Shown in pieces: positions 570-26,724 of a DNA stretch of 30,162 nt (position 1 is the stretch's first letter; every line of letters starts with the position of its first letter). Source of the DNA: Vermamoeba vermiformis (Eukaryota); the NCBI GenBank assembly GCA_045837725.1, contig JBEWZL010000101.1, forward strand, positions 496,001 through 526,162. The letters run 5' to 3'. The notes under the pieces are model-generated. The model was given only the letters and a program-made list of their open reading frames with translations. It had not been told where the DNA came from and did no database searches. Both the position numbers and the translations under genes were made by a program.

Positions 570-3490
570 TTAGTTCAATTTGGCTTGTAAAGCAGCTTCT
601 GAGTTGCCCTTGGCGAGTGCGGCCTTAACTTCAGAAGCAGTAGGCATTTTACCAACATTCATCAATTCGGCGGCTTGAGCGCAGACAGGATCTCTGTTCA
701 TAGAGCAAACAGCGTACTGAAAAATAGTTACATTAGTACATATACATACAAATACTCAATATATATTGGTATTTTCGATTAAGCCACTCAAAACGGTTTG
801 CTTTTCCGATCGGACGGATGTGACAAGGAAAATTCGTTACTTACGATTCTCTCGCCCTTAGCATAGTAAGCAACAAAGTTAAGAGTATCAGGCTCGAAAC
901 CATTCTCAGGCTTGTCGATAATAACGTCGTCGTATTCGAGAGCATAACCCGCGTAACGGATGCTCTTGCCGAAGATGGTAGTCCAGAAGAAAGGAACGCT
1001 GCGAGCAGGAGTGGTCTTACCAACCATATTCCTATTTAAATATATCATTAACATTGCAATCTTCAAAGAACCAAAGTTTGTTTAACGAATCCGATCAGAT
1101 TTCGAAGCAAGATCTTGCTGTAAGATTACTTACAAACCAGCGACCATGCCGTGGTACTGAGCCATGCCCCAGTGTTCAATGCGAACTTCTTTGCCGTCGA
1201 GACCGAAGAAAGGGAATGTGGCCATATCACCAGCAGCCCAGATGCCGTCACCAGCCTTCATGTTCTAGTTGCAAATATAACCATTAGGTCATATATTAAT
1301 ACATGAGACTATTAGCATAATCATCGAATGCTAGCAAAAGTTTAAAGTTTAGCGTAGCGGATCTGATCTTCGAATTTTCGAGTACTTACGACGTCGCACA
1401 TAACAGATTTGTCACGAGGGTTGAACTTGACACCGCTCTTAATGTAACCAGTGCTGGGGATGATACCAGCGCCGAGCACAACAACGTCAGCGGGGATCTG
1501 GTCACCATTGTTCAAGATGACTTCGCAGACAAGGTTGTTCTTAACGATGAATTCCTTAGCAACGGCCTCCATCTTGAATTGAATACCGTTCTTCTCGTGG
1601 AACTGATAGTATAATATGATTAGTATGCATGAACTACTAAGTCTTGCTAAACGTCAAAAAGATCCGGTTGCACTTCGATGGATCCAGCTTGAGGCACCAT
1701 ATAAGCTTGCTATTAATTATTATTATATACCTTGCGCAAAGCAGCACCAACTTGGACACCCAAGACACGTTCGAAGGGAGTCTTTTCCATACCGAGCACA
1801 GTGACGCTCTTGCATTGCTTGACGATGCACGAAGCAGTTTCCATGCCAATGAAGCTGCTGCCAACGATAACGACGTGCTTGCCGTTAGTAGCGTCGAGCA
1901 CCTTGTTGGCGTCTTCAGCATCACGGAGCACGAAAATGTTCAAGGCGTCGCTGCCGGGGACAGGGAGAGTACGAGCACTATAGGAATATATTAACAAAAA
2001 GAATTGAATTCGTGCAAAGCTACGGTAGATATAATGCTCCTATATAAATGTCATATATGAATGTACTTACAATCCACCAGTAGCCAACAAAGCCATATCG
2101 AAGTCAATGACTTGACCGTCCTTCAATTTAGCGTTCTTGCTCTCACCGTTGAACTCAACAACTTCATTGCCGAGCAAGACTTCAATATCGTAGTTCTTGA
2201 AGAAATCAGCTTGGCGCAAGTAGATCTTGTCGGGCTTGATTGACATAGCCTTGCTCAACTTTGGGCGGTCATAAGGCAACCAGCTTTCTTTGCATGACAT
2301 GACGATGCGACCTGACCACAAACCGTTAAAAAATTGATCGGAGATGATTCCGCGGAACGGTAAATCGTATTGCACCCGATCAAGACCGACAGTCTTTCAA
2401 TAAATATACGTTATATGAATCGATCGAACGATATGATATGGTTAGCTAGAGTTGTAAAGTCGTACCAGTGAATCCGTTTTGTCTGAGAGTTTCAGCGCAA
2501 GTAGTACCAGCGGGACCACCTCCGACAATCAACACAGTGCGTTTGTCACTAGCATCGCGCTTGACCATCTTCTTGGTGCGCTTAGAGGTCTTGACTTCGT
2601 TGGCATCACCAGACACAATAATGTCTTCGCCGACAACTTTAACCTTTAGGAATTAACATTAATTATACGTCATGTACGAAATAAAATATTTTTTTGGCTA
2701 AATTATTGGCGAATGCCGTTAATATTTCGGGATCTGAAAGTTTGTGGATCTCAATAATAAGTTACTTACATCGAAGCAAGGCAAGCTATCCATACCAGGA
2801 AAGTCTTCAATATCACCAGTCTTGCCGTCAAAAGCAGCTCCGTGCCATGGGCAACGAATTCTGCCGTCGCAGTAGGCCTAAAAAAAATCAAAATTAATTA
2901 TTTAATTTAATTATTAATGAGAATAAGAATGTAGCAAAGGTTGGGTTCATTCTTGTAACTACAACAATTAAGCGAATTTTCGTGAACGGATAGGCAAAAA
3001 AAATCGTTAAAATATCTCGATTTCCCAATGTACAGTGGTCATATAATAACAATAACTTGTGCATTATAATAATTCAATACTAAACACTTACACCGGATTT
3101 CAAAGGAGCAGAATAGTGAGTGCACTTTGATCCAACGGCGCTCAATTGACCAGCCTTGTCTTTAACGAGCAAAATCTTGCCCTCGCCGAGTGAGCATTCT
3201 TTTACTCTATTAAATTGATTTTTAATTAGTAAAAAGATTGTTACGAACGGATTCGGATCCAAATCCGTTACTAGCTTGATTGATAATTTCATAATAATAT
3301 TAAAATATTACACTTACTCTCCGTTTTTAATTTCCGAGACCTTCGCCACTACTCCTTCAACAATATTAGCATTGTTGTTATTGTTACCACGAGATGCAGT
3401 TGTGGTAGTGGTCGTGGTGTTAGTAACCTGTTGGTTCTTGCCCAACAAGGCTCTCAAAATATTAACGAATAGAGATAATACAACACCCAT
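570..3490 (-). CDS. AIFM3: AIFM3-like protein: N-terminal Rieske [2Fe-2S] domain plus FAD/NAD pyridine nucleotide-disulfide oxidoreductase; 10 exons
   Basis: Exons 3490-3318, 3206-3092, 2877-2770, 2643-2466, 2311-2071, 1977-1731, 1602-1390, 1264-1134, 1031-845 and 716-570 join in frame through GT-AG introns. Rieske motifs KCTHY and RCPWHGA; FAD motif IVGGGPAG; YDRPKLSK; NAD motif IVGSSFIGME; WAAGD; RIEHW; VPFFWT. Confidence 0.93.
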
Positions 3491-3768
3491 GACGTCTCGT
3501 GTGCTCTTGAGGTCAGAAAACAAAACAAAATCAACGAGCAAAATTTTATTCTTTCACCTGAACCAAAGTACCGTTCTTCCGCGCCGGCGAAGTAACTTTA
3601 ATACGACTGGTTCTAGAGTTTTTAGAATTGGAACCAAATTCGAACTTACAGGGTTTCAAGCCTGAAAACATTGTTCGTTCGTGAAATCCAAAAAAACTTT
3701 ATTTGATTACAACATTGCACAAAAACTCAGCATTGCAATTGAAGCGGATCTATTCAAATTCATATATC
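3491..3768. promoter_or_regulatory. Short divergent (bidirectional) promoter region between the AIFM3-like and persulfide dioxygenase genes
   Basis: Only 278 bp separate the two head-to-head ATGs (3490 on -, 3769 on +). Inferred from gene layout; no TSS data. Confidence 0.5.
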
Positions 3769-5187
3769 ATGCTTCGTACCGTTGTAAATAGCGTTGTAAG
3801 AGTTAAATCAAAGCCGGATCAGGTAACTTCATTAACACAGCTCATAAATTTTATATGACGGTGCGAAAAATAGCCCTATAATTATTATAATTACTATTAA
3901 ATCCTTTTTTGTGCATTTTAAGTAATTGGCTGAATTTTTCAGATGGCGACTCTTCAGAAAAGAGGCTTCTCAACCAAACACTCGGAAAAAGCACCGATAG
4001 TTACAAAGTTTTTTCATCAACAAACAAACTCTTTCAGTTATGTCGTCACAGATCCGGACACAAAAGATTGCGTGGTAATTGATCCCGTTCTTGACTATGA
4101 CCAGGCCAGTGGATCAATATCAACTTCATTTGCTAAGAAAATAGTAGAATATATTAAAGAACATAAATTGGACACCAAATGGATTTTTGAAACACATGTG
4201 CACGCGGATCATTTAACGAGTAAGACACATCCAAAAAACCGAAATTGTTCGTATGGCAATTAAACTATTGCTAATTATATAGGCGCTCAATACGTCAAAG
4301 AGAAGCTCGGAGGTGCTATTGCCATTGGTGAAGGCGTCACTAGTGTTCAAAAGTATTTCAAAAAAGTTTTCAACTTCAAAGAATTCAAAACTGACGGCTC
4401 TCAATTCGATTACCTAATCAAAAATAACGATAAATTTTCATTTGGTATGTATTCGAATACATCGCTGACTAACAATCGTTCTTTCCATGGGATCTGAGGC
4501 CTTCCTAATACTTTTGTGTTACAGGCAAGATGAAGGTTCGTGCATTGCAAACACCTGGTCATACGCCTAGCTGCATCACATATCACATTGGAGATGCTTT
4601 ATTTGTCGGGGATACTCTCTTCATGGTATGTACTAAGATTATACTTATAATGACTTAAGTTCTACAATTTGTATGTTCTTTCTTAACTTTTGTTCAGCCC
4701 GATTTTGGTACCGCTCGATGTGACTTCCCTGGTGGTGACGCCAAAACTTTGTACAAATCAGTGACTGAGAAGATCTATTCATTCCCAGCAACCACTCGAA
4801 TGTTTATGTGTATGTAGATTTGGAGCACAGCAAGTGTCTATTAAGTTAACATGTTGACTATAGGTCATGATTATGCTCCTGGAGGCCGAGAAATTGCATG
4901 GGAAACGACAGGTAACGTTATAACAGATCCGATCTGAAATCGAACTTACTTATAATTGCCTTCATTGAGCAGTGGGGGATCAAAAAAGGCATAATAAGCA
5001 CATTAAAGACAGCACTCCGGAGGAAGAGTTCGTTCGAATGAGGACTGAGCGAGACAAGCAATTATCAGCGCCGAACTTGTTGTACCCTGCTATTCAATTC
5101 AATATGAACGGAGGCAAATTATTTCATAAGGAAGATAACGGAGTGCATTACTTTAAATTGCCGCTAAATACTTTCAAAAAAGATTAA
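3769..5187 (+). CDS. Metallo-beta-lactamase-fold persulfide/sulfur dioxygenase (ETHE1 superfamily, bacterial SdoA/Blh-like type) with a probable mitochondrial presequence; 7 exons
   Basis: Spliced product contains IDPVLDYD, WIFETHVHADHLTSAQYVKEKLGG, DGSQFDYL, TPGHTPSC, FVGDTLFMPDFGTARCDFPGG, CHDYAPGGR, WETTV and C-terminal EDNGVHYFKLPLNTF. The N-terminus MLRTVVNSVVRVKSK is Arg/Ser-rich and acid-poor. Confidence 0.92.
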
Positions 5188-5410
5188 ACGGCGTCTCAAA
5201 TAAAGTCGCGATCAGCTTTGTCGTCGTGGCGCTTCGCTTTGTAGTCTTGTTATGAGAAATCTCTTATAAATACCTTAGTATAAGTTAGTTTCTACAAATT
5301 CGTTTCAATCGAAGATAGTACATCTTCACAATAAGACTTGCCATTTACCCGATCTCGCATTATTTTTTCCATTGCAAGCAGACCAACATACATTATACCT
5401 TTTAGTTTGT

Positions 5411-6219
5411 ATGGAACCAGCAGATAGACCAGTAAAATATGTTGGAGAGAATGACTACAGGCTAAGGCATTGGCTCGGGTTTTTGTGGCAAATTAGCGAA
5501 TTTGTCTCGTTGGCTATTTTATCGTTAGTCGGAATAGTAAGTCATAAATTAAAATACGATATAATATGTCTATAAATATTATATTAAATTAAATTAATTG
5601 ATTCAAATTGACGAATTTTCCAGCATCGTACTTTGCTCGTTATGTGGAAGGTGGAAGCCTTTGGCATCATTTGCATGGTAGCAGGATCATTTTTACATTT
5701 TAATATCACGTTATGTTATTTATTAACATACTGGTACGAATCGAGGTAAGATCCGATCGCGCGCCAAAAAAAGATCTCGCTTATTAACGAACTTGTAGGC
5801 AAATGATTTATAAGAACTACGAAAACGTACCATTTAGAAACCGAAAAGGCGGTTTTTACTTTCTTCTCTGCATTGGTGCCGCATTTTACATGACGATCGG
5901 CCTCGTTATCATCCACATCGTTGGTATCTTCAAAGCGATGTTCAATCCAGCAGAAGACGGTGCAATGCATTTGATACTACTTGCGGGAGATATTAATCTC
6001 GTCAGGCACTTCGTTTCAAAGGCATTGTTGGTTGGCGAGAGGCGAGATGGCAAGTACTCGATATTTGCTGTTACTCCTTTGCTATTAAATTTTCAAATAT
6101 TCGCACAACGACGCGGGCAAGTATTGCAAGTTCAAGAACAACCAAGACCAGGGTTGAATGTGGTATCTGTTCTACCTGATGCGAGGTCTGGGCTAACACA
6201 GAACACTCCTCTTATGTAA
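5411..6219 (+). CDS. Hypothetical multi-pass membrane protein (~220 aa, 3 exons)
   Basis: Exons 5411-5536, 5624-5745 and 5799-6219 join in frame via GTAAG...AG introns. Several hydrophobic segments (FVSLAILSLVGI, FGIICMVAGSFLHF, FYFLLCIGAAFYMTIGLVIIHIVGIF). No family recognised. Confidence 0.65.
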
Positions 6220-6561
6220 AATTATATATGTGTTATTATGTACAGCATGAAGGCACGAGAGGCATATGTAAATAAAGCAGTCTGTCAAGCAAGATCTGAT
6301 CTCATAAGATTCCGTTAGGCGTGCCAACCTGAAGGCTGTTGAGGAGAGAGCTTACATGCGCCCATTATTTGATAATAAATACAGTATAAAATTAGTGCAT
6401 TGTGGCTTGCTAACGCGTGCTTCGGATAATTTTGGAATAAATAACGGCCAAAGCGATTTTTTGCTTTCGTGAGCCTTGAATCAATAGAAGAAGAGAGTGC
6501 ACCATATAAATACCTTCTTTCTTCACTTATTTATTTAAACTATATTTATTATTGCTCGCGA

Positions 6562-9488
6562 ATGAGGCTGAAAGCTCTAGCTCTATTATTACTGTCGTTA
6601 TTGGCGACATCTGCCTTCGCTGCTGAAGGCACAAGTACAGAAAGCAAAGCAGAGGAAGAAGAAGCCGTTATGGGCTTTGGTATGCTGCTATTAATTGGTC
6701 TCTTGGTAGCTACCTTCCTCTTCGGTTATGTATTGCATCAAGTCCACTTTGTCTACCTTCACGAGTCTGGAGTTGGCTTGATTTTAGGTACGCATTATTA
6801 AATGTGGTTTATTTGGTTTAGCAGTTAATTATCTTCCGGGCTATCACTAGATCCGGATAATTTTTGTTATTTTAAAAACTAAAATCCGTTATTGATACTT
6901 CCTTCATATCAAAATTTATTCTTATTATAGCTCGTACAATATGATATTTATTTGTATTTTTTAGGCATTATTGTTGGAGCTTTGATCCGTTTTGTCTCAG
7001 ATGTAGATCAACTGCGCTCTATTGTATCATTTAACCAAGAATTTTTCTTCTTGGTGTTGCTGCCGCCTATTATTTTCGAATCTGGCTATAATATGAAGCG
7101 AGTAAGTTCCATAACAAACCAGAAATATCGAAATTCAAACACGATCAATCAATGGCCCTCGATCTGTCACTACGGATGCGTGCATTTAGCGACAAAATAT
7201 CTTATTTATTTATTTTTAATATATTAGGGCCACTTTTTCTACAATATCGATTCGATCTTGGCAACGGCTCTTGCAGGCACTTTCATATCCATGGTCGTTG
7301 TCGGCTTTTTGACTTACGGAGTCATTGCTGCTGGTAAGTTAGCTTTAAAATAATTATAAGCATGCCTATAATAGGCTTATTATGCTGATTAAGGACAGCT
7401 GAAACTGAAGCGCGCAAATTTTTAATGCTAAATTCAGAACTTGATAATAATAATATTTTTTTGATTATATTTAGCACTAAATTTAATAATACACGAATAT
7501 GATAATATTTAAGCTCAAATGTATATTTATGCAATTAAAATTCCAGCCACAAAATAACGTTACTGGCCAAATATTTCTAACCATTAAAATTATGACTTAA
7601 TTAGGCATGACCCGATTTGGTATGACCATTCTTGACTGCTTCATTTATGGTGCTCTTATTTCTGCCACGGATCCTGTAACCGTCTTGGCCGTCTTCAAGG
7701 CCCTCGGTGTCGACAGCAATGTGTACGCTAACGTCTTCGGTGAGTCAGTACTCAACGACGCCGTCGCCATCGTGTTGTACAGGTACGTTCAGCTCATTAG
7801 AATTAATTATTAAGCTCAAAAACCCGAGCCAAAGTCACGTGTACACGTGCACGTTGCAAAGTCTGATTTGGTTAAGCCAGTATTAATTCTTCTTTTAGAA
7901 CTGTCGTTGGTTTCTTGGACTCTGAATTGAACGCTGCCACGTTCTTTTTGGCTATTTTGAAGTTCATTTACATTTTCATTGGCTCGATCATTGTCGCGGT
8001 CATCATCGGCTTGTTGAACGCTATTGTAAGTCACGTGATTTATTCTTTTGCATGAATATAGACTCACAGTGTCGGCCTCTAGTTGTTCAAGTACACCTCG
8101 TTGTATAAGATGCCTGTGATGGAGACCGTCATTTTGGGTTTGTACGCGTACTTCAGCTACTTGATCGCCGAAGGTTTGTCCTTGTCTGGTATCGTGGCCA
8201 TTTTGTTCTGCGGTATTACTATGGCCCACTACAGCTACAACAACTTGTCCAAGTAAGTCCCACGAAGTGCTTAATCTAACATAATTTTTGGCCGTTCAAG
8301 ATCACGATCCGGATCGGCATCTCAATTTTTTTTTTTCGCTTTGTGAACATAATATTAATGCATTATATTATAGGATTTCTCAACGCTCGACCAAGAGATT
8401 CTTCGAAATTATTGCTATGATGGCTGAGACTTTCGTCTTCATTTACATCGGTTTGGCCATTTTCGTCTTCGATCAGGTACGTACCAATCATAAAGTATTG
8501 ATAAGCTACACGTGGCTAATATTCCTAATTTAGAAATTCGACGTTGCCTTGATCTTGTGGCAACTTCCTATTTTGTTGATTGCCCGTGCGTTGAACGTGT
8601 TCCCGATGGTCGCTCTCGTCAACGCCAACCGCAAGCCCATTCACAAGATGCCGATGACGCAACAAGTCATGATGTGGTTCTCTGGCTTGCGTGGTGCTTT
8701 GGCCTTCTCGTTGACCTTGCACATCCCTTCTGGTGCTGCCACCTTGATTAAGACTACCACGCTCGTCATTGTCTTCTTCACTGTGCTCGTGTTGGGTGGT
8801 TCTACGGTGCCTATGTTGAAGGCGTTGAAGATTAAGGTACGTCTCCAGATCCATTTTTTTTGACCCGTGTCGGATCACAGATCCGCGAAGATTTTTTATT
8901 ATCTTATGTGATAGTATAGCCTTACTAATATTATAATACTATTAGATCGGAGACGGTGGCCACGGCCCATCTGATCCCGAGTCTTTGACTAACCAAGAAC
9001 GCCTTGAAGCTGAGGCCGAAGAGGAGTTTGTGCAGAAGAACAGATTCATGGAATTTGACCGCAATTATCTCAAGCCATTCTTCACGCGTTATTTGCGCAA
9101 GAAGAACATGCCCGGCAACGCTCTTGAGGGTCACCACGAAGAGACCCCGATGGAACTCCAAGTCGATACTGAATTGGAGGCTATGAAGCATGATAAGAAG
9201 CCCATGAGAGAAGGTGAAGTCATTGAAGGTAAGTGCCATATATAGTTAATACTAATAGAGTTGAAATTGCGGTATTGCACGAGCGAGCCAGATCCGATAA
9301 AAAAAAACTATTTTTGACCGAATTAATTTGTTCAATTTAAGCTTGTTTAGCTTATAATTAATACTATTCGATAAAATGTATATTAATAACTATTTTTAGA
9401 TCATCCTTCTGCAGAACACAAAAAGCCGGTCTCGGTCGAACGACAAGGATTGATTGAATCTGATGACGAACAATCAAACCTTGCTTAA
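6562..9488 (+). CDS. Na+/H+ exchanger (CPA1; intracellular NHE8/NHX-like) with N-terminal signal peptide; 10 exons
   Basis: Motifs [81 protein letters not shown] and [11 protein letters not shown]. Exons start at 6562, 6965, 7228, 7605, 7899, 8083, 8374, 8534, 8946 and 9400; stop TAA at 9486-9488. Confidence 0.95.
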
Positions 9489-9587
9489 AGTAACGAACTA
9501 TTGCTTCGTAATATTATTAGGGCGGTTTATATCGCCTTTTAAAATACATTTATTTAATTTTATTGTTTTGAAAATAAATTTTGAAAA

Positions 9588-10209
9588 TTAACTTGATTCT
9601 TGCTTCTCTTTGTTCTCGGCGACATCATCGAGCTTATTAACTAGTTCTACTAATACATCACCATGGCAAGGCGCTGGTTTGCACTATCAACGAATTTAGA
9701 TCGGGATCTGAAATTGAAAGATCAAGGAACTTACCCAACAGCCAAGCACTTTGCCTTTTAATTCCGGTAAATCTTTTAATAATTTTTCGTTTTTCATTAA
9801 ATATTCTCGGTACTTCTCAACGGCGTTTTCATTCGTTTTGAGATCTTTGACTTTGAACGGATTTGCCCATTTGCTCGCTTTTAATCGCCAGCCACCCATG
9901 TTCATAGCTCGGCCGATATATACATCGCAGTCTTGAACAATTTGGCCATTTTTCCGCTTTAATTTCACTACAGTGGTTTTTGCCACCCCTTCAGTCTTTG
10001 TTCTACACGAAAATATTGAATAAATAATTTCAAAAATTTAGAATCTAAAAAATATTTAAAATAAGCAATAATCCGTTTTGGCTCGTCTGATCTCTTAGAT
10101 CTTACTTTTTAAGCGGAGGTTCTTCCTGAGTTAAATGTGATGCATCCGCTTTTCTCTTTTTCTCGTTCTTTTCAAATTTTAGTTTCGTTTGTGTTGTTTT
10201 GTTCGACAT
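9588..10209 (-). CDS. DUF4326 domain-containing protein; 3 exons
   Basis: Exons 10209-10106, 10002-9735 and 9683-9588. Family signature DVYIGR...SKWANPFK...AVEKYREYL...LPELKGKVLGCW|CKPAPCHGDVL, with GCWC..CHGD completed by splicing. Confidence 0.88.
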
Positions 10210-10501
10210 GGCTATTCAAATGAAACTTTTGTGCCGTAAATCAGCCAAAACTGGAAAATTCGACAACAATTCCTGACTTATTGGGTTTGGCCCTGAAGAC
10301 ATAACATGAAATGTGTTCGATTAAGGTTTAAGCTTCATTTTTAAACATGAAGTCGCTGTCGAGAACAATTAAGGCACGAGAACTCAGCTCCCATCTTCGG
10401 CATTAACATTTGCCACGGAAAGGCATAAAAAAACAAAAATCATGCGCGTTGACTTGATTTATTCCGGTACAGAAGGTTGGACTTGCCGTAGTCGATCCCA
10501 T

Positions 10502-12719
10502 TTACGTAAATTTCATCTTGATTATTTTGGCCTTAGTTTCAGATACAACCACCAGCACGTCATCGACGCAAAAAACGCGTTTGAGATCTGTTGGACCCAA
10601 TTCAAGGGTTTTGATCACTGTGCCTGTTTCCCAATGAATTACCTGTAAAATAAATTTAATTAATATTTTAATCTAAATTAGGCAATAAGTGTCCTACTTT
10701 AAGTTGTTGTTCGTTGTTGGCGATAAATAGAATTTTTCCGCTGGGATCGAACTTCAAGTCCGCCAATCCTTCAGGTATCTTTATAACTATTTGCCAAGTC
10801 TTCTGATCCAAGTCAAATACTTCTATCGAATTTGGCTTTTTGATCGCAATCTTATCTGCAAATAGTCTGTTAGAAAAATCGAATGACACGTGTCACTATG
10901 AGCTCTAGATCATGACACGTGTCATTAATTGTCAAGCACGATAAATTCCTTGACTCGAAAAATACAGAGGTCGTGTAAAAATAATATTTGTCATTTATAA
11001 ATTTCGTTATTGTTACGTACTGTGTTTCGGGACCCAAGTGAATTCTTCAGCTTCAATCACCGTGCAATAATTGCGGTTTTTCAAGTCAAAAATTATGGTT
11101 GTATTTTCACGACACGTAAATCCGAGTAAGTATCTTTTCACTCCGTTAACCTTCGTCACGTGCTCGCTAATATCTGTTCGATATAATTAATATTATTAGT
11201 GTGATCTTAGTTAATTAGTGTAATCAACTCGTACTTCTAGCGTTTTTGATATTTTGGAGCTCGTTCATTTTCAAAAATTTGATGCTCCATTCCGCAAGCA
11301 AGTTAAAAATCTCTAAAGGTCCTTCAACGACTTCCCATAGTCCTAATTTGTCGTCGAAAAATATCGCAAATACGTCCGGCTTGTTTTTAAATGCATAGAT
11401 TTTTTGAATTTTTCCGAATTCTTCTTCGAGATCTTCAAACGATTGCTCATGATTATGACACCTAATGTACTAATATATGAGTCAACCATATATATATATA
11501 TATATTGCGTACCTAACACATGCTGGAGGTGAAGTCGGCGCTGCCTTGGCACTCCATCTGGGTAGAGGACAACATTTCTCGGTAATTTTGGCAATATTCA
11601 GCTGATTATAACTCTAATAATCATACAAAATATTAATATTATAGCATCTATATTTATCGAATTTAGCAAGAAATAGTCCTTGACATACCAGGTCGCAGAT
11701 GTACTTTGAATTTACTGCCAGATGTTGCAGACCTTCCTGGGAAAATCCAAGCCCTCCTCTAACCTTTTTATACGATTTTATTCCGCGTTTGAATTCTTCT
11801 TGGTCCCAAATGACGCATGCTGAGTCATAGGCAACGAAAAGTTGTGTTTTTTCTAAATCCAGATTCGGTCAGCAACCTTCATGTACAATATATCAAGCTA
11901 TCGTTATTAATTTTTCTTACCATCGCTATAAATATTCACATTCGAATCGAAAATATCAATTAAATTTCCATAGTACGTGGCTCGTTTGAACGGATACTCA
12001 GTAATGATTTTCGAAACCGGTAGTTCGTCTAGTTGAGCCTCCATAATATCTCTTATATAATAGTCTGCTAAAGCACTGACAGAAAAAAAAATGATCGGAT
12101 TTTTCAGCGGTTTGCTGGTGGCAATTCTGCGATCGGAAGATCAGATGGATCCGCAAAATTTCTTTAACTTACGTCAAATCAATTATAGTCACCAGTTCGC
12201 CATCTACTATAATAAAACAGTCCGATAGTAAGTGAAATGAAAGCTTTTGGGGATTAGGGATGTGATTTCCAGTCATGAACGCGTATTCGAACGTCTTCTC
12301 AATGCTTGGCCTTAAAAACCGATTAGACTATAATCTAATTAATTAATATATTATATTTTGTTGCTTACGACGATAATATCTTTGTTAATTGTAGTACCTG
12401 AGAAAAAAATCAGAATTTTATTTTGTCCAATGACAGATCCAGCTTACCGTTGGCCGCCAGTGCTGTTTAAACTCCGAATTACACGTGACAAAAGCATTAT
12501 TAAATATTGTCCGCCATATCACACTTTGGTCTGATAAAACATCGTTCCATTGCTTGCAAACCAAGCAGATGCAGGCAAAATGTTTAAAATTAATTCTCTT
12601 CAATATATTTTCGAGTACTTCTAGCGGTACAGCATTAAATGGATTGAATTTAGCTGCAATAATTAATTTTTGAATTAATAACTGCACATTAAGTTCCATT
12701 TTTAAAACTTACTTTCCAT
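10502..12719 (-). CDS. F-box protein with a beta-strand-rich, WD40/propeller-like C-terminal region; multi-exon
   Basis: ATG GAA A|GTAAGT at 12719. F-box FNAVPLEVLENILKRINFKHFACICLVCKQWNDVLSDQSVIW. C-terminal repeats such as IEVFDLDQK, LKFDPSGKILFIA and VIHWETGTVIKTL. Stop TAA at 10504-10502. Internal exons only partly resolved. Confidence 0.75.
11488..11505. repeat. (AT)9 microsatellite in an F-box gene intron
   Basis: atatatatatatatatat read directly. Confidence 0.8.
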
Positions 12720-13072: not shown

Positions 13073-15847
13073 TTAAGCCATAGGAATGGATGTAATATGC
13101 GGAGTGTTCTTCAATTGACGTCTTGAAGCAATATATCGCAATAATAGTCCTGATAATAGCACGGAATTGATCGGCATGAAGCTCGCACACGCTAAAATGC
13201 CAAATCCACTCGCTGCATTCACTGCATTGCCAAAACTGAGACCGAGAGCTAACACGAACGGAACTGTAACAGGACCTAATACAAAAAATATGAATAAGAC
13301 TCATCCACGGTGCATAAAATATTAGCTTATGCATATAATTTATCAATTTAAGTTGGTTAAATGAAGGCAATATTAGGTTGAAGAAAGAGATCTGTAGGCA
13401 AGATCTCGTTTTAAAATGAAATTTACCTGTTGTAACGCCAGCGCTATCCCAAGCAATATTGACAACGTCTTCTTGACTATAGTGCGTTAATACTAACGCT
13501 ACGCCGTAACCAACGATGATGAAGTAGATCAGTGAGAGTTGATAGAGGATAATAAGCACTCCTAATAACACGCCGGAGCCAACTCCGAGTGAAACTGCAA
13601 AGATGAGAATTGAGCTCTTAAACTGGCCCTGGGTGATTTGTTCCACTTTGGATCCCATGACGTTCATGACTGGTTCTGCAAATGTCGCCAAAACGCCCAA
13701 AAAGAATGCAAATAGGCATACGATGAGCAACCCGATCGATCGATCGAATAACGGCGAATTTTCAACGCCGTCAATGGCCATCAAACCCGTCGGCAAAACT
13801 TTTCCGAGAAGTCCAGCTAGTGGTGTCATGCCATAAGTCAGACCAAGATTGAACAATAGCATGCCTAGTTGTGCAAATCCAAAGCCTAGTAATATCATCT
13901 TCATAGATGTGCTAAACCAACTTCGGTTCTTTGGAGATCCGGATTCAGCCTCGCTGGATTCGCCACTCTCGAGCATATCCAATCGATTCTTCTCTTCGTA
14001 GCTTTCACTGTGTGAGTCCTCTGACTCGACTTCGGTGCCTACCATAGGAGCAGTATCTTTATATACTTGTTCTTTGCTTCTGGATCGCAAAAATTTGGAC
14101 GAAATGTCGTGGCCGGATGTAGTTCGTTCATTGAACATTTTTTGCTTGTGAAGCCATTCTTCGCGATCTTGAGTTGATACAAAGGCCGTAGTATCAATTA
14201 CGAAGCGTAGTTGAGGTACTACTGCTGCACCGGCTTTGGCTTCTTGTCGGTAACGTGCGATCTCTTCTTCAGAAGTTTCGTACAGGCCAAGTTCTTCCTT
14301 ATTAGCGCGCAGTACGTCCATTGAATTATTTAAGTTGACGTTAGGCGAACTTTCGACTGAAATGACGCGTAGTTCTTCTGATTTTGAAGCTTTTTGTTCG
14401 CTCGCATCCAACGCCATGATCTTGCGAAGAGTAATTTCTGGCAAGTGTCCTCGAAGGAATACTAATAGGACGACTATTAATAGAACTCCTAGCGGCACGA
14501 TAGCGCGAAAGGCGTAAATGACTTCGATGATTGGTGACTTTTCTAAGAACGGCAACTCGCTGTTGTGCTGAACTGACTTGGTCTCCTTCAAGATTTGGTC
14601 TATTGGCTTAGAGTACACCAATATGACACTAAGGATTTGGATACATAATACTGGCAGGAGCGCGGCCAAAGTGACAACTCCGAACGCATCCACTTTCTTG
14701 TTTGACTCTTCTTGTGGTCTTTCTTCGATAACTAAAAGAATTTTAGGACTCTATCCGATTGAATATTAATATAGTGCTTCGTTCGTACCTTCTTCTTCGA
14801 TAATTAAGCTATTAGTATTGAGCTTTGAGTTTCTTCTTTGAAGAAGCTGCGTTTCTCGTTCAAGTTGGTGTTTTCTGAACTCTTGTTGCGCACTGACACC
14901 AATACCAATCGATAATATAATAGGTACTGTTACTGGACCTAAATAAACAACATTAAGACCTGTGTAACGGGTTCAAATTTGACCGTCAAATTTCCAAACT
15001 AAAATTTTGACCGTCAAAAATTAAACGAGGACCACGTACCAGTTGCCACGACGCCAATATCCCAAGCCAAATTAATAAGAGGTCGTAGATTATCATTGGC
15101 CACGTGCATAAACAGCGACAGTGCAATAGTTGATCCGCCGATCGAGTAGATGAGCGGCTTGAGTGACCATCGTCTCGTGAACCTGATGATGCCTAATACG
15201 GTTGCTGTTCCTACTCCAAGTCCAATCGACAAGACGAGCATTTCGCGCCAATTGTTGACCATGTAGAACAAATAAGGCTGTTGTTTCCGCTTTACTTCTG
15301 ACGTCAGTGGCGCTATGGCTGCAATGGCTGGCTCGGCGTAAGTAACTGCAATGCCAATGACAAATGAGAGCATCAATACGAGGGCTATATGGAGCTTTTC
15401 GGGCATTAAGCGGCCAATGGATTCGCCAAGTGGCATCAAGGCAAATTTTAATCCTTCAATAAATAAAGTCAAGCCTAATATGACTGCTAATATTCCAAAT
15501 CCAACGACTGCGCCATTTTCTGCTGATTGGTGGAATATTAAAGCTGCAAATAAGACGAAATAAAGTGTGATCGGGATAATGACTTTGATCTGCTCGTATA
15601 GCTGTAATAAGAAGTAGTGCGTCACGTCGTAATGTTTGAATGCGTTGAATTGCTTCCATAGCTTCTTATATTTCTTTAGTACGAATTGTGGGAGTAAATT
15701 AAATGGAAACGGAGCGCGGATCTTGATGCGAGTTGGATCTGCTACCGACTCAAAGGTTAGAAAATATTAATATCATAGTTGATTTTAATGACAATATTAA
15801 GGCTTACCGTTATTTCCATTATCTACTAGACTTTCTTGTTCACTCAT
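13073..15847 (-). CDS. Membrane protein with two tandem DUF1538 domains separated by a long hydrophilic loop; 5 exons
   Basis: Half 1: GLTLFIEGLKFALMPLGESIG, TYAEPAI, WDIGVVATG|PVTVPIILSIGIG, DAFGVVTLAALLPV. Half 2: GMLLFNLGLTYGMTPL, TFAEPVM, WDSAGVTTG|PVTVPFVLALG, SGFGILACASFMPI. ATG at 15847; stop at 13075-13073. Confidence 0.88.
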
Positions 15848-16607: not shown

Positions 16608-18570
16608 ATGCCTAGTGCTAAAGGAAAACAACGATTATCTTCGTCGCCCGTGCTGACCGAAGTACGCGCTGGTGAGAATGGAAATGGAATCGCGGGTAAA
16701 GGCAGCGCCAGCGAGAAGAAAAAGAAAATTATGCGCTTAAAAGAGTTTAGAGAGCTGTTACAAAAGAAAGTAAGGCAATAGTAATGCTAAATATCGAGGT
16801 TTATCAAGACCATCGCGTGATCTTGCGACTAACTAATATTTTTTCGCTTTTAGCTCAAGTACGACATCGGTACAAGTGCCAGACATATTCGCAATTGGGT
16901 TAATGATAAAAAGCCGTATTTGCCGCCCCGCTCGCCATTTTCATTGTTGCAAGAGCTGTTTTTCTACGATCCGTGGAAAGTTTTGATCGCCTGCATGGTA
17001 AGAAAATTAAAGCGATATTTTTAATATTATTTTCATCGATAATAAGCCTCAATGAGCGATTTAATCGCGGCCAACCATTTTCCTGGAATTTTAATTATCT
17101 GATCCAAATTTGACGTGACATTTTTTTCTTTAGTTCCTCAACAAAACTTCGGGCAAACAAGTCTCTACTGTATTATATAAATTCTTTAGCCGTTATCCAA
17201 CGCCTATTGACCTTCGAGACTCGAACAGAGAAGATGTGATCGCGATCATAAAACCGCTCGGGTAAGTAGCACCTCACAGCTATATATCGTCGGTCATGCG
17301 CTAACCATGCTAAATAGATTATTTAATAAGCGAGCTGACATGATTGTTCACTTTACAAAAGAGTTTTTGGCGGGTAATTGGCGGATGCCAGATCAGATCA
17401 AAGGTGCGTGGCTTTCTTTAACTCTCTAATCGCACAAAAATACTGTAACGTGCTTTAAAATAGTAATTTTATCGTTTGATAGGTATTGGAAAGTACGCTA
17501 ACGACGCTTATCGAATCTTTTGCTGCGGTGAATTCAAAGACGTGCAGCCAAACGATCACGCGTTGAACAAGTACCATGAGTGGCTTATCAAAGAAGATAA
17601 TAGGGACCAAGATAGTAAAAAAGTAAGTCGGTTAATAGTAAGGCTAATCTTGGATCGAAACTAAGCGGCTGTATTCAAAAGGGTTCTGGATCTGCTTCAT
17701 CCAGCGAAAATAACAGCAATGATTCGCAAGATAGTCAAAATCCACGTGAAATTTCAAGCAATGAGAGTGACCAGGACGAAAAAGAAGAAGAAAAGCCGAA
17801 CACAAAGTCAAAAAAGAATTCAGGCGTCAAAGAATCAAAGTCAGCGCATCATCAAGCGTTCTTAGTGGCCGGAGAATTAAAATGGAATATCCGACGTGAA
17901 GATTTGAATATTTCGCAAGAAGAACGTGATTGGTGGTCTGAATTGTTCGACATCCGAGACTATTTCTACAAAAAGTTCCAGAACGTTGAAATCGATGCTC
18001 AAAGTGATGAAATCTCGCAATCTGAAGAGGAGGTCGTTATAGAAAAATTGCCTAAAATGGCAAAATCTGCGACCAAAAAACGAAAAATTGAGATCGAGGA
18101 AGATGGGTACGAAAAGAAATCGAAAAAGAAGCAAAAAATTGACAAGGAAGCGGCCAAGTTAGAAAAACAACGCGCAAAAGAGGAGAAAAAGCTGGAAAAG
18201 GCCCAAAAGAAGGAGAATAAGAAAAAGAAGCAGATCGATCGTGAGGCCAACAAAGAAAAATCGACTGCAGAGCGTTCTTTACCAGAGAACTCGATTGTTA
18301 TTACTGTAAGTATTGTTAGCATAATTCTTAATACCTTGAATATAACTAACCTACCCCTAGAAAACGAATTTGCCTCCTGGATGGAGATTCGAAATCCGAA
18401 AGCGACAATCGGGTGGCACTAAAGGAAGAGAAGATTACTATTGGTAATTATCGCTCGTATTTAGCGCTAAATCATCGGCTTACACTGACTTTGACCTCAG
18501 GTACTCACCAGAAGGAAGAAAGTTCCGCAGTTTGGTTGAGATCCGAAAGCACCTTGCTAGTCAAAAATAG
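16608..18570 (+). CDS. MBD4: MBD4-like HhH-GPD G:T/U mismatch DNA glycosylase with a C-terminal methyl-CpG-binding domain (478 aa, 8 exons)
   Basis: Exons 16608-16769, 16854-16997, 17134-17261, 17318-17403, 17483-17622, 17682-18305, 18361-18443 and 18501-18570 total 1437 nt in frame. Glycosylase: [115 protein letters not shown]. Confidence 0.92.
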
Positions 18571-19323: not shown

Positions 19324-20730
19324 TTAATCAAACTTCAATACAGCGCGGAAGCGAACTTTGTTGGTCATCATCGCTTGATAAGCTTCGTTGACTTTGTCGA
19401 GCGGGAAGACTTCAATCATTGGACGAACACCAGTCAAAGCTGCAAAGTTGAGTGTGTCTTCGGTTTCAATAGGAGTACCGCTAGGCCTATAAAGATAGCG
19501 TATTAGATCCGAATCTGCAGCTAAAAATTCTCGAACAAGCAAATTTAACTTACCAACCGACAACACCACGGCGTTGACCAATCAAATCGAAAGCACCAAC
19601 TTTAAGAGGCTCATGAGGAATTCCGAGAACGAAAACACGACCGTCAGGAGCCAAACCAGGAGTAAGTGCTGAGATCGCATCTGCGTGAGGAGCAGTAGCG
19701 AGAATGACTTTAGCACCGCCGAGGGCTTGCAAGGCCTTAGCAGGGTCTTCCTTAGAGACGTCAATATAGATATGAGCACCGAGCTTCGTGGCCAGCTCTT
19801 TCTTGTCGGATCCGGAAGAAAGGGCGGCAACCTTGTAGCCCATCTTGGCAGCGAATTGGACACCTACACGAGTATTAATATCGAGCCACGATAATACATA
19901 GTTATAGTGCTTACCAAGGTGACCCAAACCACCCAAACCCTGGACTGCAACGAGATCACCAGCCTTGGCGTCAGAGTGACGAAGAGGGTTGTACACAGTG
20001 ATGCCTGCACACATCAATGGTGCTGCTTCTTCGAAGGACAAATCATCGGGAATGCGTGCAAGGGCTTCAAAAGGCACTATAGAAAATAAATAAGTATTAA
20101 TACTGAAAATTGGATTTGTAACGGATGCGCTCGTTGCATGCTGCGTATGTAATCAATGGTTGGAGCGATAATTTACCTGTAATATAGTTGCTGTATCCTC
20201 CGCTATAAGAAACACCGCAAATCTTCTCGTGTTTGCAAGTCATCCAGTCACCGCGACGGCATCTGTCGCACTGGAAGCAGTGACCACCGTGCCAGCCAAC
20301 ACCAACGCGATCTCCAGCCTTCCACTCAAGAACACCAGCACCGACCTATTAAATAAGCGATTAATTAAGAGTGATCAAACTAAAAATCGGATCGCATCTA
20401 ATTTACTCGTGTTAATACGCATGAAGACATACCTTATCGATAACACCGGCAACTTCGTGTCCGGGGCTAATAGGGTATTGAATAGTCGGGAAGACTCCTT
20501 CCTTAGTGAACATATCGCTGCAAAATCAAGAGGTCAGATTCGCGCGAAAAAATTTGATCCAGCAATTTTTAATAAATAATAAGAATTCTGGTATTAATTG
20601 CTACTAACCTATGGCATATACCACATGCGTGCACTTTAATACGCACTTGGTTTTGAGCAGGTTCAGGGAGGCTCTTTTCTTGAACGACGAATCGTTCGGC
20701 TCTAGCTTTTTCAACGACGGCAGCTTTCAT
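19324..20730 (-). CDS. Zinc-dependent medium-chain alcohol dehydrogenase (AdhP/CAD-like); ~6 exons
   Basis: MKAAVVEK...ACGICH|SD; PGHEVAG; GDRVGVGW; structural Zn motif CFQCDRCRRGDWMTC; AAPLMCAGITVYNPL; VQGLGGLGHLG; C-terminal KVRFRAVLKFD. Confidence 0.93.
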
Positions 20731-23283: not shown

Positions 23284-25104
23284 TCATCCAGATCCAAGTA
23301 TGTTTGAGATCGCCTCTCGCACTTCTTTCGCTGTGGGACGATTGTTAGGATTAGCGTCCCAACACTTGATAATGAGCTGTCGGTAAGGCTTGGGACACAT
23401 AGACTTGTTAATTTTAGGCCTTTTTCCATCAGCAATTGCTTTGCGAATGTGATTTGTATCGTGCAAACCCTAACCAATCGTTAATCAGCCATTTCCTATT
23501 TCCAAATAAGGAAATTAGTATTTGAGTCGCTTACTTCCCAAATATTCTGTCCTGAGTGAAATATTTCCCAGAGAATCAATCCAAAGCCGTACACGTCTAC
23601 TTTTTCATTGAACGAGAACTCTTCAATGTCACGTGACTTTATTCGGAGCATCTCCGGTGCTTGAGATATAATACCACCGGCTCCCTACAATTAACTTAGT
23701 CCGTGGCGAAAGAAAAATTCGAGGTAATTATTTTACGTACTCGTTTGCGCTGGTAGACATCAGGGTTATTCAGTTCCGATATGAACATTGATAATCCAAA
23801 GTCACATATTCTCACACGCCAATCATTCGTTAACAAAATATTTTTGCTGTTGAAATCTAAGTGGATCACTTTCAACGTCTCGTGGATGTACACCAAGCCT
23901 ATCATACCAATCAAATATTAGTCTAATTATAGCAGTTATCGGCTACATATATTCCATACCATTAATTATGTCTTTGATTATAGTGTCTCTATGCTTGGCA
24001 AACTCGATGTTTGGATCCGGCGCTGAAGTTTTTGCTCGACGTCGTCCTGATTGATTTTGTATGTGTAATACGTCGTATAATGATCCCCTTGGACAATATT
24101 CCATAAATAGTAACTTCAATTCTGCTTGAAAATCTATAAATTGGACAACGTTCTCGTGCTTCGCTAGGCTAGAAAACTTAAGCCAGATCCGATTTGATTA
24201 ACGAGCTTTTGATATGTACCTTAATATATGCGCTTCATTTTCAATACTTTCTAATGTCTGTTTGTTATTATATTGCTTCACAGCGACAACACTATCGTTG
24301 TAATTTGCCTTCCAGATCTTGGAAAATCCACCAACGCCTACTACGTCCTCAAACTCGACTTCATTTGCATCGACTATAAGTCCGTTAATATTATAATATT
24401 AATGATATGTATTACCTTTTTCTCGTTTCTCTGGAGTAGATTCTTGTTGGGTAGCCGGATCTGCACTCGAAATTGTTAAGCTAGCCATGGACTGTTCAAT
24501 AGCCTTATCTTCTTTTGTTACATTTGCCTTATTTGGTAATTCAATAGGGCTGAGTTCTGTTGTCGGGTCGCTAACGTCACGGTGAACTTCGGTTTCGTCG
24601 CTGATCAGATCCAATTCGTTCAACAACGATAGCTCTTGGTCGTTTAAATAAAATTTTACCAAACTGAGGTATCCAGCCCTACATAATAGTAATTTAGCGG
24701 AAATTGACTGATCAAGCTGGATCTTACTTTTTGGTGAACGTTACACGGTCATTGTACAAAGAAAATTCGCCATTAGCAGGCATAATAGATGCATCTATAC
24801 CTTTAATATCCCATCTACCATATAGCGAATATTAATATAGGAGCTTTCAAACAGATCTGAACAACTTACACGAACTTGCATTGGTCGTCTTGCAGGATCT
24901 GAAAATTAATATCGAATTTTCCTTTATTTGGAAGCTTTTTGAGCAGATTTTTGCCTTGTTGAAGTGCTTTGTTATTTTCATTGTCCAATAAATACCACGC
25001 TAAAGTATACGGCGTTAGAGATTTGGTAATTCGACGATTAATAGCTTACTAGAATTATTATCGGCATTAATATTAATTTTTGAGCAATTTCCAGTAATTA
25101 ACAT
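23284..25104 (-). CDS. Tyrosine-kinase-like (TKL) protein kinase with an N-terminal extension; multi-exon, start uncertain
   Basis: VGVGGFSKIWKA, VAVK, HENVVQF, MEYCPRGSLYDVLH, VIHLDFNSKNILL, ICDFGLS, QAPEML, KVDVYGFGLILWEIF and CWDANPNNRPT. Stop TGA at 23286-23284. Confidence 0.88.
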
Positions 25105-25334: not shown

Positions 25335-26724
25335 ATGGCGCTTCGTAGAATACTTGGCTACTCTGTGCGTAGAGCCCAATATAAATTTACAAGGTCGATC
25401 AACTCAATGTTCGACATGTTTGACCAGTACTTGGGTCCTCACAATGGTGCAAGTATGTATTTACATATTTAGTAAATACTAAGAAGTATAATTAAATTAA
25501 ATAATCGGATAATTAACGCTAACCGTTGACAACAGATCTTGCTGTTCAAAATATTTCTGGAGCCTTCAAAAATTCAAATATTCCTAAAAGCGACTTATTA
25601 GGTAATTTCAAGACCTAAAATAATATTGGAAATATTTTTCTAATTTTTCTGTGCATTTTGATCTGCAGATCCGAAATCTAGATCAATCTTGCTCGCTGGA
25701 CATTCACATTGGGAGAATATTAAGCACAAAAAAGCACGTGCCGACAGTGCTCGAGCAAGCAAATTTCAGAAACTATCGTTAGAAATTACGACAGCTGTCA
25801 AACAAGGGGGACCAGATCTTCAGAGCAATTTACGATTGGCCCTGTTACTACAAAAAGCGAAAGAAATTAATTTTCCTAAAGACAGAGTTGAAGCCGCCAT
25901 TCAGAGAGTAAGCAAATACTAATTACCTATTCACATTAGTTGTTCGATCCTTAACTTGAGATGGATGTCGCTCCTGAGAAATTTCTGACGCGATAATTAG
26001 GGCTCTGGAAAAGGATCAGATAGTGCTGAGCCGATTATATACGAAGGCTATGGACCACAAGGCACAGCTATAGTAGTTGAAACATTGACAGACAATCGCA
26101 ACAGAACAGCGCAACTTATTCGCAAAATATTTTCAGATTATTCGTGCAATTTAGGCGCTACGGGATGTGTCTCGTATATGTTCAACAAATTAGGACAAAT
26201 AGTCATCCCTATGAACGTAAAAACTGAAGATGAAGTAAGTTAACCGGCATCCGCGGTTATTTTAATTTAAAGAGTTGTGATCAAATCATTAATGCGGATT
26301 AAATAATAATTTATTTTTAGATTACGGAGATTGCTTTGGAAGCAGGAGCTGAAGATATAAAATTTCCGGCTGTCGGAGAAAAACCTGAAGCTAAAGTAGG
26401 TTTATTTTAAAAATATTAATATTAATATTTTGTTATTTATAGCTAATTTGATACTAAATATGACAAATGTAACGTTTACTAATTTGGTTTCATAAATAGA
26501 TTTTTTGTAGAGTGGATGCGTTGTTCGATACCAAGACAGTCTTAGAAAGCAAAGGAATAATTCCGCGACAAATGTCGATCGTTCAATTGCCTCAATCGAC
26601 AGTTACATTCGCTAACGAAGAAAATTTAAAATTGTTCCAAGACTTTTTAATTGCGTTTGAAAATTGCGAGGATGTTGTAACCGTTACGCATAATGCAGAT
26701 CTGAAGGCTGAAGAGGACGAATAA
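25335..26724 (+). CDS. TACO1: YebC/PmpR-family protein (TACO1-like) with a probable mitochondrial presequence; 6 exons
   Basis: AGHSHWENIKHKKARAD, GGPDLQSNLRL, YEGYGPQGTAIVVETLTDNRNRT, SYMFNKLG, LEAGAEDI and EDVVTVTHNA. N-terminus MALRRILGYSVRRAQ. Confidence 0.92.

Follow-up and report, generated by a model that had tools for sequence, protein, structure and literature searches.

A GATC-centred palindromic word in excess in introns of a gene-dense 30-kb stretch of Vermamoeba vermiformis DNA

Why do so many introns in one stretch of Vermamoeba vermiformis DNA carry the tetramer GATC, often in several copies, and would such a word be read on DNA or on RNA? The stretch in question (contig JBEWZL010000101.1, positions 496,001 to 526,162 of the forward strand; hereafter the window) comprised 30,162 bases of gene-dense and intron-rich eukaryotic DNA with 38.6% G+C. 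A first-pass annotation had noticed clustered GATC-centred motifs in introns of an AIF-like gene (G1) and of its neighbours, and had proposed a DNA-level signal, either a methylation target or a site for a chromatin protein. The intronic excess of GATC is real, the observation being both confirmed and strengthened here; the unit is an 8-bp palindrome, C-R-G-A-T-C-Y-G, and its preferred place was the first part of the intron.

Excess of GATC and the unit that carries it

The gene models of the window contained 13 genes and 74 introns, the latter totalling 7330 nt (some of the statistics below use an earlier version with 73 introns, median 87 nt; the final set is 74). In these introns, 63 GATC were counted against 19.77 ± 4.21 in shuffled sequence (0/500), with at least one copy in 36 of the 74 introns and at least two in 18. 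The excess reported for the AIF-like gene was borne out, since seven of its nine introns (1181 nt) held 13 GATC against 3.85 ± 1.81, a number reached by none of 1000 dinucleotide-preserving shuffles. The 12 sequence strings that had been quoted with coordinates were all present as written, each of them intronic and the last one crossing a 3′ splice junction as described. The claim that other genes show the same pattern also held: between 717 and 10105, 27 introns (3046 nt) possessed 35 GATC in 17 introns versus 8.88 ± 2.69 expected (0/500), and beyond 10105, 46 introns possessed 28 in 19 introns versus 10.91 ± 3.24 (0/500).

The k-mer comparison with shuffled background that the first-pass annotation had proposed, run within the window, gave the same excess. 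GATC was the most over-represented of the 256 tetramers window-wide, with 189 copies versus 106-111 under order-0, order-1 and order-2 models (z 7.4). Within intron interiors, an unbiased scan gave it the top rank among 4-mers (60 vs 19.9, Bonferroni 8e-11), GATCCG, CAGATC and AGATCC were among the top 6-mers, and CAGATCC headed the 7-mers (7 vs 0.14). Enrichment was 3.2x in introns, 1.28x in exons, and 2.0x in other non-coding sequence, a class of 6.4-6.5 kb which, because untranslated regions (UTRs) were unannotated, mixes promoters, UTRs and possibly missed exons. Non-intron flanks had 34 GATC versus 17.1 ± 3.8 (0/1000), and the coding sequence (CDS) had 91 versus 65.8 ± 6.0 with synonymous codons shuffled within each gene (0/500). 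Among the 16 NATN tetramers in introns, GATC alone was raised (3.03x), the values for CATG, GATG and CATC being 1.24x (order 1), 0.58x and 0.57x, respectively. Other tetramers of 50% G+C stayed close to or below expectation in introns (TCGA 1.21x, TGCA 1.19x, ACGT 1.12x, GTAC 1.05x, CTAG 0.72x), and other palindromes of that composition spanned 0.72x-1.62x.

The octamer CRGATCYG occurred 17 times window-wide versus 1.08 ± 1.00 (0/100 shuffles), an approximately 16-fold excess, and 7 times in introns versus 0.12 expected; its half-sites, CRGATC/GATCYG, numbered 34 in introns versus 2.96. With both half-sites folded together, C was found at flank position -2 in 51 of 126 half-sites (log-odds 1.41), G or A was preferred and T disfavoured at -1, and a pyrimidine was preferred at -3; the same C preference at -2 was seen in non-intron flanks (log-odds 1.37). 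Because specific flanks extend GATC to 8 bp, this is the type of word read by a DNA-binding protein. The leading hexamers were CGGATC/GATCCG (12.7x), GGATCC (11.8x), CAGATC/GATCTG (10.2x) and AGATCC/GGATCT (9.0x), which accounts for the wording AGATCCG / CGGATCT-like and for the adjacent CpG in the first-pass annotation; the claim that the motif often abuts CpG agreed with 18 copies of CGGATC/GATCCG versus 1.42 expected. The word CGGATCCG could conceivably be read as a CGG-N2-CCG zinc-cluster-type site; about half of the half-sites were CAGATC.

Position within introns and genes

The gene models were obtained by a dynamic-programming gene finder trained on the same window, followed by hand curation. 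Introns had 30.6% G+C versus 43% in exons, GTAAGT-like 5′ splice sites, and a CTAAY branch word close to the 3′ end. All spliced frames were open, and single-exon Pfam matches were found in the expected order (Rieske + Pyr_redox_2, Lactamase_B, DUF4326, F-box, DUF1538, ADH, protein kinase, TACO1/YebC). G1 was colinear with an independent 578-residue protein, P0124, from an 1823-nt contig (557/579 identical, 1 gap); since this contig is intron-less, all nine G1 introns were confirmed.

The motif had been described as having no fixed distance to splice sites, which was correct in that no single distance prevailed, but a strong tendency to lie within ~66 nt downstream of the 5′ splice site was observed. 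In the 29 introns of at least 100 nt, 28 GATC lay at +6 to +66 (1740 nt) versus 5 further in, from +66 up to a point 30 nt short of the 3′ end (1485 nt; P 3.2e-4 by binomial test), corresponding to 3.8x and 1.3x the first-order expectation, respectively. Between +10 and +50 the density reached 11-17 per kb, past +70 it was 0-8.5 per kb, and the final 100 nt of the preceding exon had 3-8 per kb. Such a position bias, found by the splice-site-distance test, had been named beforehand in the first-pass annotation as pointing to an RNA-level element. With GATC ± 2 nt masked, none of the other features (CpG, GpC, G+C, CCG/CGG, AACGG, CACGTG, CATG, TCGA, AGCT, TGCA) gave a significant zone ratio (0.57-1.28); the bias is thus specific to GATC among the features tested. 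A general G+C-rich island after the 5′ splice site was rejected, the masked ratios of CpG, GpC and G+C being 0.90-0.97. Compensation for weak 5′ splice sites was likewise rejected: GATC was found in the first 70 nt of 13 of 25 GTAAGT introns and of 20 of 48 others (Fisher P 0.46).

By length, GATC was present in 27 of 36 introns of 80-180 nt, in 7 of the 32 shorter ones, and in 2 of the 5 longer ones; since long introns were no richer in sites than those of medium length, this amounts to roughly one cluster for each intron. No relation was seen between the presence of GATC and intron rank. The tight pairs and triplets described earlier were found, half of the 36 GATC-bearing introns having at least two sites, but the extra clustering was modest once the zone of ~60 nt was allowed for (36 introns hit vs 41.5 ± 2.6 expected, P=0.026).

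Some GATC of the other non-coding class may in fact lie within unannotated transcribed sequence. A candidate 5′-UTR intron of G2 (3796-3942, plus strand) would start with GTAAGA at 3796 and have GATC 21 nt downstream; a GTAAGT on the minus strand (24864-24869), possibly a further donor, has GATC ~12 nt downstream; and two GATC at 531-539, 34-39 nt past the G1 stop codon, are presumably in the 3′ UTR.

The genes referred to are as follows.

G1, 570-3490, minus strand: AIF-like, 9 introns (1181 nt)
G2, plus strand: metallo-beta-lactamase fold
G3, plus strand
G4, 6562-9488, plus strand: which we take, on our own reading, to be transporter-like
G5, minus strand: DUF4326
G6, minus strand: F-box
G7, 13073-15847, minus strand: DUF1538
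G8, 16608-18570, plus strand: MBD4-like, 8 exons
G9, 19324-20730, minus strand: zinc alcohol dehydrogenase, four introns
G11, minus strand: kinase
G12, plus strand: TACO1/YebC
G13, minus strand: F-box-like, 5′ end beyond the window

The intronic sites are as follows, with the strand of the gene.

808-811, minus: GATC within the palindrome TCCGATCGGA, G1 intron 9 (717-844)
1093-1114, minus: 2 GATC (1093, 1111), the second in GCAAGATCTTGC, G1 intron 8 (1032-1133)
1360-1368, minus: 2 GATC, 5 nt apart, including CGGATCTG, G1 intron 7 (1265-1389)
1661-1684, minus: 2 GATC (1661, 1681), G1 intron 6 (1603-1730)
2336-2425, minus: 3 GATC (2336, 2378, 2422), G1 intron 4 (2312-2465)
2731-2750, minus: 2 GATC (2731, 2747), G1 intron 3 (2644-2769)
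3246-3269, minus: GATC (3256) central in the 24-nt near-palindrome AACGGATTCGGATCCAAATCCGTT, G1 intron 1 (3207-3317)
4491-4494, plus: GATC, G2 intron 2 (4445-4524)
4926-4981, plus: 3 GATC (4926, 4931, 4978), including CAGATCCG, G2 intron 5 (4912-5008)
5750-5776, plus: 3 GATC (5750, 5755, 5773), G3 intron 2 (5746-5798)
6850-6853, plus: GATC (TAGATCCG), G4 intron 1 (6788-6964)
7143-7164, plus: 2 GATC (7143, 7161), G4 intron 2 (7102-7227)
8300-8315, plus: 3 GATC, 6 nt apart, including the 12-nt palindrome CGATCCGGATCG, G4 intron 6 (8253-8373)
8848-8883, plus: 3 GATC (8848, 8873, 8880), including CGGATCacaGATCCG, G4 intron 8 (8837-8945)
9291-9294, plus: GATC (CAGATCCG), G4 intron 9 (9229-9399)
9699-9723, minus: 3 GATC (9699, 9705, 9720), G5 intron 2 (9684-9734)
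10089-10101, minus: 2 GATC (10089, 10098), G5 intron 1 (10003-10105)
10494-10497, minus: GATC, G6 intron 10 (10293-10505)
10908-10911, minus: GATC between two TGACACGTGTCA palindromes, G6 intron 8 (10856-11020)
11203-11206, minus: GATC, G6 intron 7 (11174-11234)
12093-12151, minus: 4 GATC (12093, 12131, 12139, 12148), G6 intron 3 (12076-12172)
12436-12439, minus: GATC (CAGATCCA), G6 intron 2 (12328-12447)
13389-13405, minus: 2 GATC (13389, 13402), G7 intron 4 (13276-13426)
16819-16822, plus: GATC, G8 intron 1 (16770-16853)
17101-17104, plus: GATC, G8 intron 2 (16998-17133)
17653-17656, plus: GATC (TGGATCGA), G8 intron 5 (17623-17681)
19506-19509, minus: GATC (TAGATCCG), G9 intron 4 (19487-19553)
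20373-20393, minus: 2 GATC (20373, 20390), G9 intron 2 (20346-20432)
20556-20559, minus: GATC, G9 intron 1 (20518-20608)
24186-24189, minus: GATC (CAGATCCG), G11 intron 3 (24169-24219)
24710-24723, minus: 2 GATC (24710, 24720), G11 intron 1 (24679-24727)
25535-25538, plus: GATC, G12 intron 1 (25453-25668)
25660-25673, plus: GATC at 25660 and CAGATCCG spanning the 3′ splice junction, G12 intron 1
25946-25949, plus: GATC, G12 intron 2 (25908-26000)
26279-26282, plus: GATC, G12 intron 3 (26235-26320)
27152-27155, minus: GATC (CGGATCCG), G13 intron 9 (27101-27198)
28684-28717, minus: 3 GATC (28684, 28703, 28714), including CGGATCCG, G13 intron 6 (28555-28732)

The near-perfect palindrome AACGGATTCGGATCCAAATCCGTT in G1 intron 1 is centred on GGATCC, and its outer arms, AACGGAT/ATCCGTT, recur in other introns; AACGG/CCGTT showed no zone bias in introns (7 vs 7).

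How the word may be read

A signal on duplex DNA is favoured because of strand symmetry, the excess outside introns, the lack of extra RNA structure, and spacings of 5-6 nt between neighbouring cores. As to the symmetry, 22 non-palindromic GATC hexamer pairs were compared in sense and antisense (chi2 13.6, df 22, P 0.92); as a control in the same introns, the branch-site word CTAAT occurred 32 times in sense versus 9 in antisense. The DNA-level proposal of the first-pass annotation was sustained in part: the symmetry, the excess in flanks and at synonymous sites, and the absence of a tie to 5′ splice-site strength speak for it, whereas the positional bias does not. Of its two versions, the chromatin-protein site fits best, while the methylation target gains nothing from sequence context, only GATC of the 16 NATN words being enriched.

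The reading tentatively preferred, to which we give somewhat less than an even chance, is a protein-read DNA element within the transcription unit that is related to the plant GATC motif but distributed differently. The palindromic CRGATCYG would be kept in excess in transcribed non-coding DNA, foremost in the first ~65 bp of introns, the usual arrangement being a single cluster of 1-4 copies per intron, with gene flanks and synonymous positions also favoured. A sequence-specific protein would read the word on double-stranded DNA, a candidate being a GATC-preferring GATA-type zinc-finger factor by analogy with precedents in plants and fungi, and it may work within the transcription unit, influencing either transcription itself or co-transcriptional steps where exon and intron meet, in a mode that can be likened to the plant downstream GATC motif and to the signals of intron-mediated enhancement (IME).

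Judged by sequence, the closest known system is the plant motif YVGATCBR, within whose consensus CRGATCYG falls. As described by Voichek et al. (Nat Genet 2024, PMC11525189), this motif was found by massively parallel reporter assays, raises transcription by ~50% per copy in a dose-dependent manner, works only downstream of the start site of transcription (TSS) and within ~500 bp of it, is strongest in introns and UTRs, acts via GATA factors, and has weak or no effect outside vascular plants; CAGATC and AGATCC are given there among the strongest hexamers. Both words have the GATC core, a pyrimidine at -2 and a non-T residue at -1, and, following the same description of the plant motif, both lie inside the transcription unit, mostly in introns and UTRs but also in coding sequence, often in several copies. 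YVGATCBR was fitted by 21 of the 63 intronic sites versus 2.08 ± 1.44 (0/500) and by 47 in the window versus 12.0 ± 3.3 (0/100), and three of the six strongest plant hexamers ranked 3rd, 4th and 7th of 26 GATC hexamers here, CAGATC and AGATCC being the 3rd and 4th. The two differ in that the sites here were in the first ~66 nt of introns and in that the host appeared not to be a land plant, those named among the 50 AIF matches listed being animals, an ascomycete and Cafeteria.

IME is reported to be orientation-independent (Rose et al. 2011, PMC3355757) and splicing-independent (Gallegos & Rose 2019, PMC6760150). Its Arabidopsis signal TTNGATYTG is similar in being an intron-borne, GAT-centred word which, in these reports, is additive, orientation-independent, DNA-level, and also active from UTR or coding sequence; however, IME is described as limited to ~1 kb from the TSS, and the sequence distribution here had no such limit. 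Outside plants, the fungal factors NsdD2, WC-1 and SUB-1 exemplify zinc fingers of GATA type that bind GATC in DNA (PMC8805025), although the sites described for them are in promoters of particular targets, compared with half of all introns here. A full-text literature search for such a motif outside plants returned only plant work.

Several points weigh against a protein-read element of this kind. The plant motif is described as promoter-proximal, but a promoter-proximal restriction was not seen here: intronic density was 9.9, 8.3, 6.6, 11.4 and 11.4 per kb for introns starting 0-500, 500-1000, 1000-1500, 1500-2000 and >2000 nt from the ATG, which served as proxy for the TSS (64 introns; G13, with its 5′ end off the window, excluded), and thus did not fall with distance. 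The top words here (CGGATC/GATCCG and GGATCC) are outside the plant top six as published, and three of those six were weak or absent (AGATCT 3.5x, GATCTA 1.1x, AGATCG 1.1x). The canonical GATA word had no enrichment in introns (0.79x), and TTNGATYTG was practically absent, the 73 intron interiors having one match in sense and one in antisense. So sharp a concentration in the first 66 nt is not expected from a pure DNA model and hints at coupling to splicing. Moreover, every statistic came from a single 30-kb window, with gene models of our own making except for G1.

Adenine methylation survives best among the alternatives, though we regard it as doubtful. GATC would then be a symmetric target of N6-adenine methylation (6mA), made by a GATC-specific methyltransferase or by an ApT enzyme of AMT1/MTA1c type whose flank preference is unusually narrow, and gene bodies would retain the clusters as sites that take up methylation strongly and serve to mark or phase chromatin. 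A palindrome with central ApT suits symmetric maintenance methylation, and an excess at synonymous sites and in flanks fits a DNA mark. We know of no GATC-specific adenine methyltransferase established for a eukaryotic nuclear genome; the Dam sites of bacteria, a prokaryotic system, are the same GATC palindrome, read on duplex DNA and sometimes clustered where regulatory. The AMT1/MTA1c system of ciliates, green algae and early-diverging fungi also methylates a palindromic ApT site (PMC12695648, PMC4835550). Its best substrates are the S-A-T-S class, of which GATC is a member; in eukaryotes that encode AMT1, 6mA is highest in this class and lowest in W-A-T-W (PMC12695648), the context of most ApT in AT-rich introns. 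According to both sources, this 6mA is associated with gene bodies and transcription and is placed periodically in relation to nucleosome spacing; in Nannochloropsis, an enrichment of 6mA close to splice donors is reported, but at sites other than GATC (PMC10943562). On the other hand, the AMT1/MTA1c system is described as methylating CATG, GATG and CATC too, words unenriched or depleted here, and as concentrating its 6mA near the TSS; in Chlamydomonas, 76% of DpnI-detected 6mA was in CATC/GATG and 19% in GATC (PMC4835550). Since GATC alone was enriched, generic ApT methylation does not predict the pattern, and selection for ApT or S-A-T-S in general was rejected by the NATN table; with CATC/GATG depleted, the methylation explanation would therefore need a GATC-specific enzyme. 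The flank preference, reaching -2 and -3, was wider than the reported S-A-T-S context, and no methyltransferase domain was found among the exon and open reading frame translations scanned, although a 30-kb window says little on this point.

The distances between GATC bear on a chromatin link. Peaks were observed window-wide at 143, 295, 418, 565, 697, 832 and 970 nt with a spectral peak at 138 nt, a value reached with clusters preserved by 25/1000 uniform and 1/1000 jitter (± 70 nt) nulls. The three thirds of the window peaked at 138, 140 and 132 nt, exonic GATC alone had a period of 136-138 nt (1/500 jitter nulls), and the intronic-by-exonic cross term was 3.46 in the 130-146-nt band (18/500 nulls). 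This periodicity counts for methylation, but it was post hoc, is shorter than a nucleosome core, and was not significant when the clusters were collapsed to 149 points (493/1000 uniform, 94/1000 jitter nulls). It was also common to AT-rich words and A+T content: TATA and ATAT had stronger power than GATC, at 142 nt, and bulk A+T had ~2x baseline power at 130-150 nt, GATC being in antiphase to A/T runs. The 5′ splice sites themselves did not show the period. The ~138-nt periodicity is suggestive as a lead for a chromatin link and is not evidence of one. A bolder scheme can be drawn from it, in which gene bodies would hold a sequence-encoded CRGATCYG array with ~138-nt spacing, in antiphase to A/T runs and placed at intron starts where coding allows. 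A GATC-specific epigenetic system, working by symmetric adenine methylation or through a dedicated reader, would take this array as its substrate, phasing chromatin and marking where exons and introns meet; we think this scheme improbable. To our knowledge, no eukaryotic counterpart of a Dam-type code has been described for any nuclear genome.

We consider it unlikely that the word works at the RNA level as an intronic element following the 5′ splice site, whether as a splicing enhancer recognised by an RNA-binding protein or through self-complementary GAUC pairing within or between pre-mRNAs or with a small nuclear RNA. Such an element would account for the anchoring of the excess to the 5′ splice site, for the 28 versus 5 sites in the longer introns with no such bias in other features, and for one cluster per intron regardless of length. 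Yet the flanks were strand-symmetric, whereas CTAAT, a true RNA signal, was 32:9; the excess extended to synonymous CDS sites and flanks, including the two copies past the G1 stop codon; and the presence of GATC was unrelated to 5′ splice-site strength. Folding of the first 80 nt gave similar z-scores with and without GATC (means -0.22 for 40 introns with none, -0.09 for 17 with one, -0.27 for 16 with two or more), and RNA hairpins as a general explanation were rejected; in addition, 6 of 27 neighbour spacings were 5-6 nt, with cores too near for hairpin pairing.

Very unlikely, finally, is a word of no function, left by mutation or repair bias, by compositional heterogeneity of introns, or by decayed copies of a mobile element or "introner": GATC was indeed raised in every sequence class, as a genome-wide mutational bias would give, introns hold G+C-rich patches (observed/expected (O/E) ratios of CpG 1.65 and GpC 1.48), and palindromic 4-mers were mildly raised in general (mostly 1.05-1.6x), but other tetramers of 50% G+C were not raised comparably (0.58x-1.21x), bias would neither restrict sites to the first 66 nt nor impose C at -2, intron scans gave no known RNA family (Rfam, 0 matches) and no tRNA (ARAGORN, 0 genes), and all-against-all blastn of the 73 intron interiors found no sequence in common around the GATC clusters. 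An introner relic was rejected in that comparison, as the best intron-intron match (35.3 bits) equalled the best of 20 shuffled sets and the 12 best pairs were AT-rich words or the CACGTG palindrome, none involving a GATC cluster. A part of the probability is reserved for explanations beyond these four.

Neighbouring genes and wider meaning

Named relatives of the three genes searched with single-exon proteins were animals, an ascomycete, Cafeteria, Volvocales and bacteria. The AIF-like protein of G1 shared 48-53% identity with animal AIF3/AIF4 and 52% with that of an ascomycete, among the matches listed. G7 encoded an 800-residue membrane protein with two DUF1538 domains and a long low-complexity stretch between them; its best named relatives were from Volvocales (42-44% identity over ~37% of the query exon) and a marine transcriptome. 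G9 had as its nearest relatives two records (75% and 71% identity, measured over one exon), with bacterial-type proteins coming next (49-58%), and this alcohol dehydrogenase may be an old bacterial acquisition.

G8 encoded a protein similar to MBD4-type DNA glycosylases. Two of its exons aligned with MBD4 glycosylase domains of known structure (E 2.5e-8 and 2.4e-13), colinearly with residues 11-38 and 112-147 of the chain, and a methyl-CpG-binding domain was split over the last two small exons (Pfam MBD, E 0.0067 and 0.016, colinear but below cut-off); the gene model was completed manually with a final intron (18444-18500) and a final exon (18501-18570). Such a gene suggests that the organism has 5-methylcytosine; CpG was nonetheless not depleted, with O/E of 1.25 in the window and the higher value already given for introns.

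Two further intronic words were observed. The 12-nt perfect palindrome TGACACGTGTCA, with the E-box/G-box core CACGTG, was present in 3 copies versus 0.00 expected (10884-10895 and 10913-10924 in G6 intron 8; 27705-27716 in G13 intron 8), all in introns of two F-box genes; CACGTG itself occurred 7 times in introns versus 0.53 and represents a second, rarer intron-housed palindromic word. In intron interiors, AATATT was found 41 times versus ~16 and TAATATT 26 times versus 6.8, often after a branch-like CTAAT, as in CTAATATT (7 vs 1.06).

A GATC-centred word was shown to be a strong tuner of expression in plants only in 2024, according to the report cited above, and a related word was here ~16-fold enriched in an apparently different lineage, with properties unreported for plants: placement in the first ~65 bp of introns, occurrence over whole gene bodies, and possibly periodic spacing. 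Were the word methylated, it would be the first example, in a eukaryotic nucleus, of a sequence-specific code made by adenine methylation. If it were coupled to the 5′ splice site, DNA-level signals would be linked to intron definition in a short-intron genome. Should a protein read the word, regulation exerted inside the transcription unit would be older or more widespread than thought.

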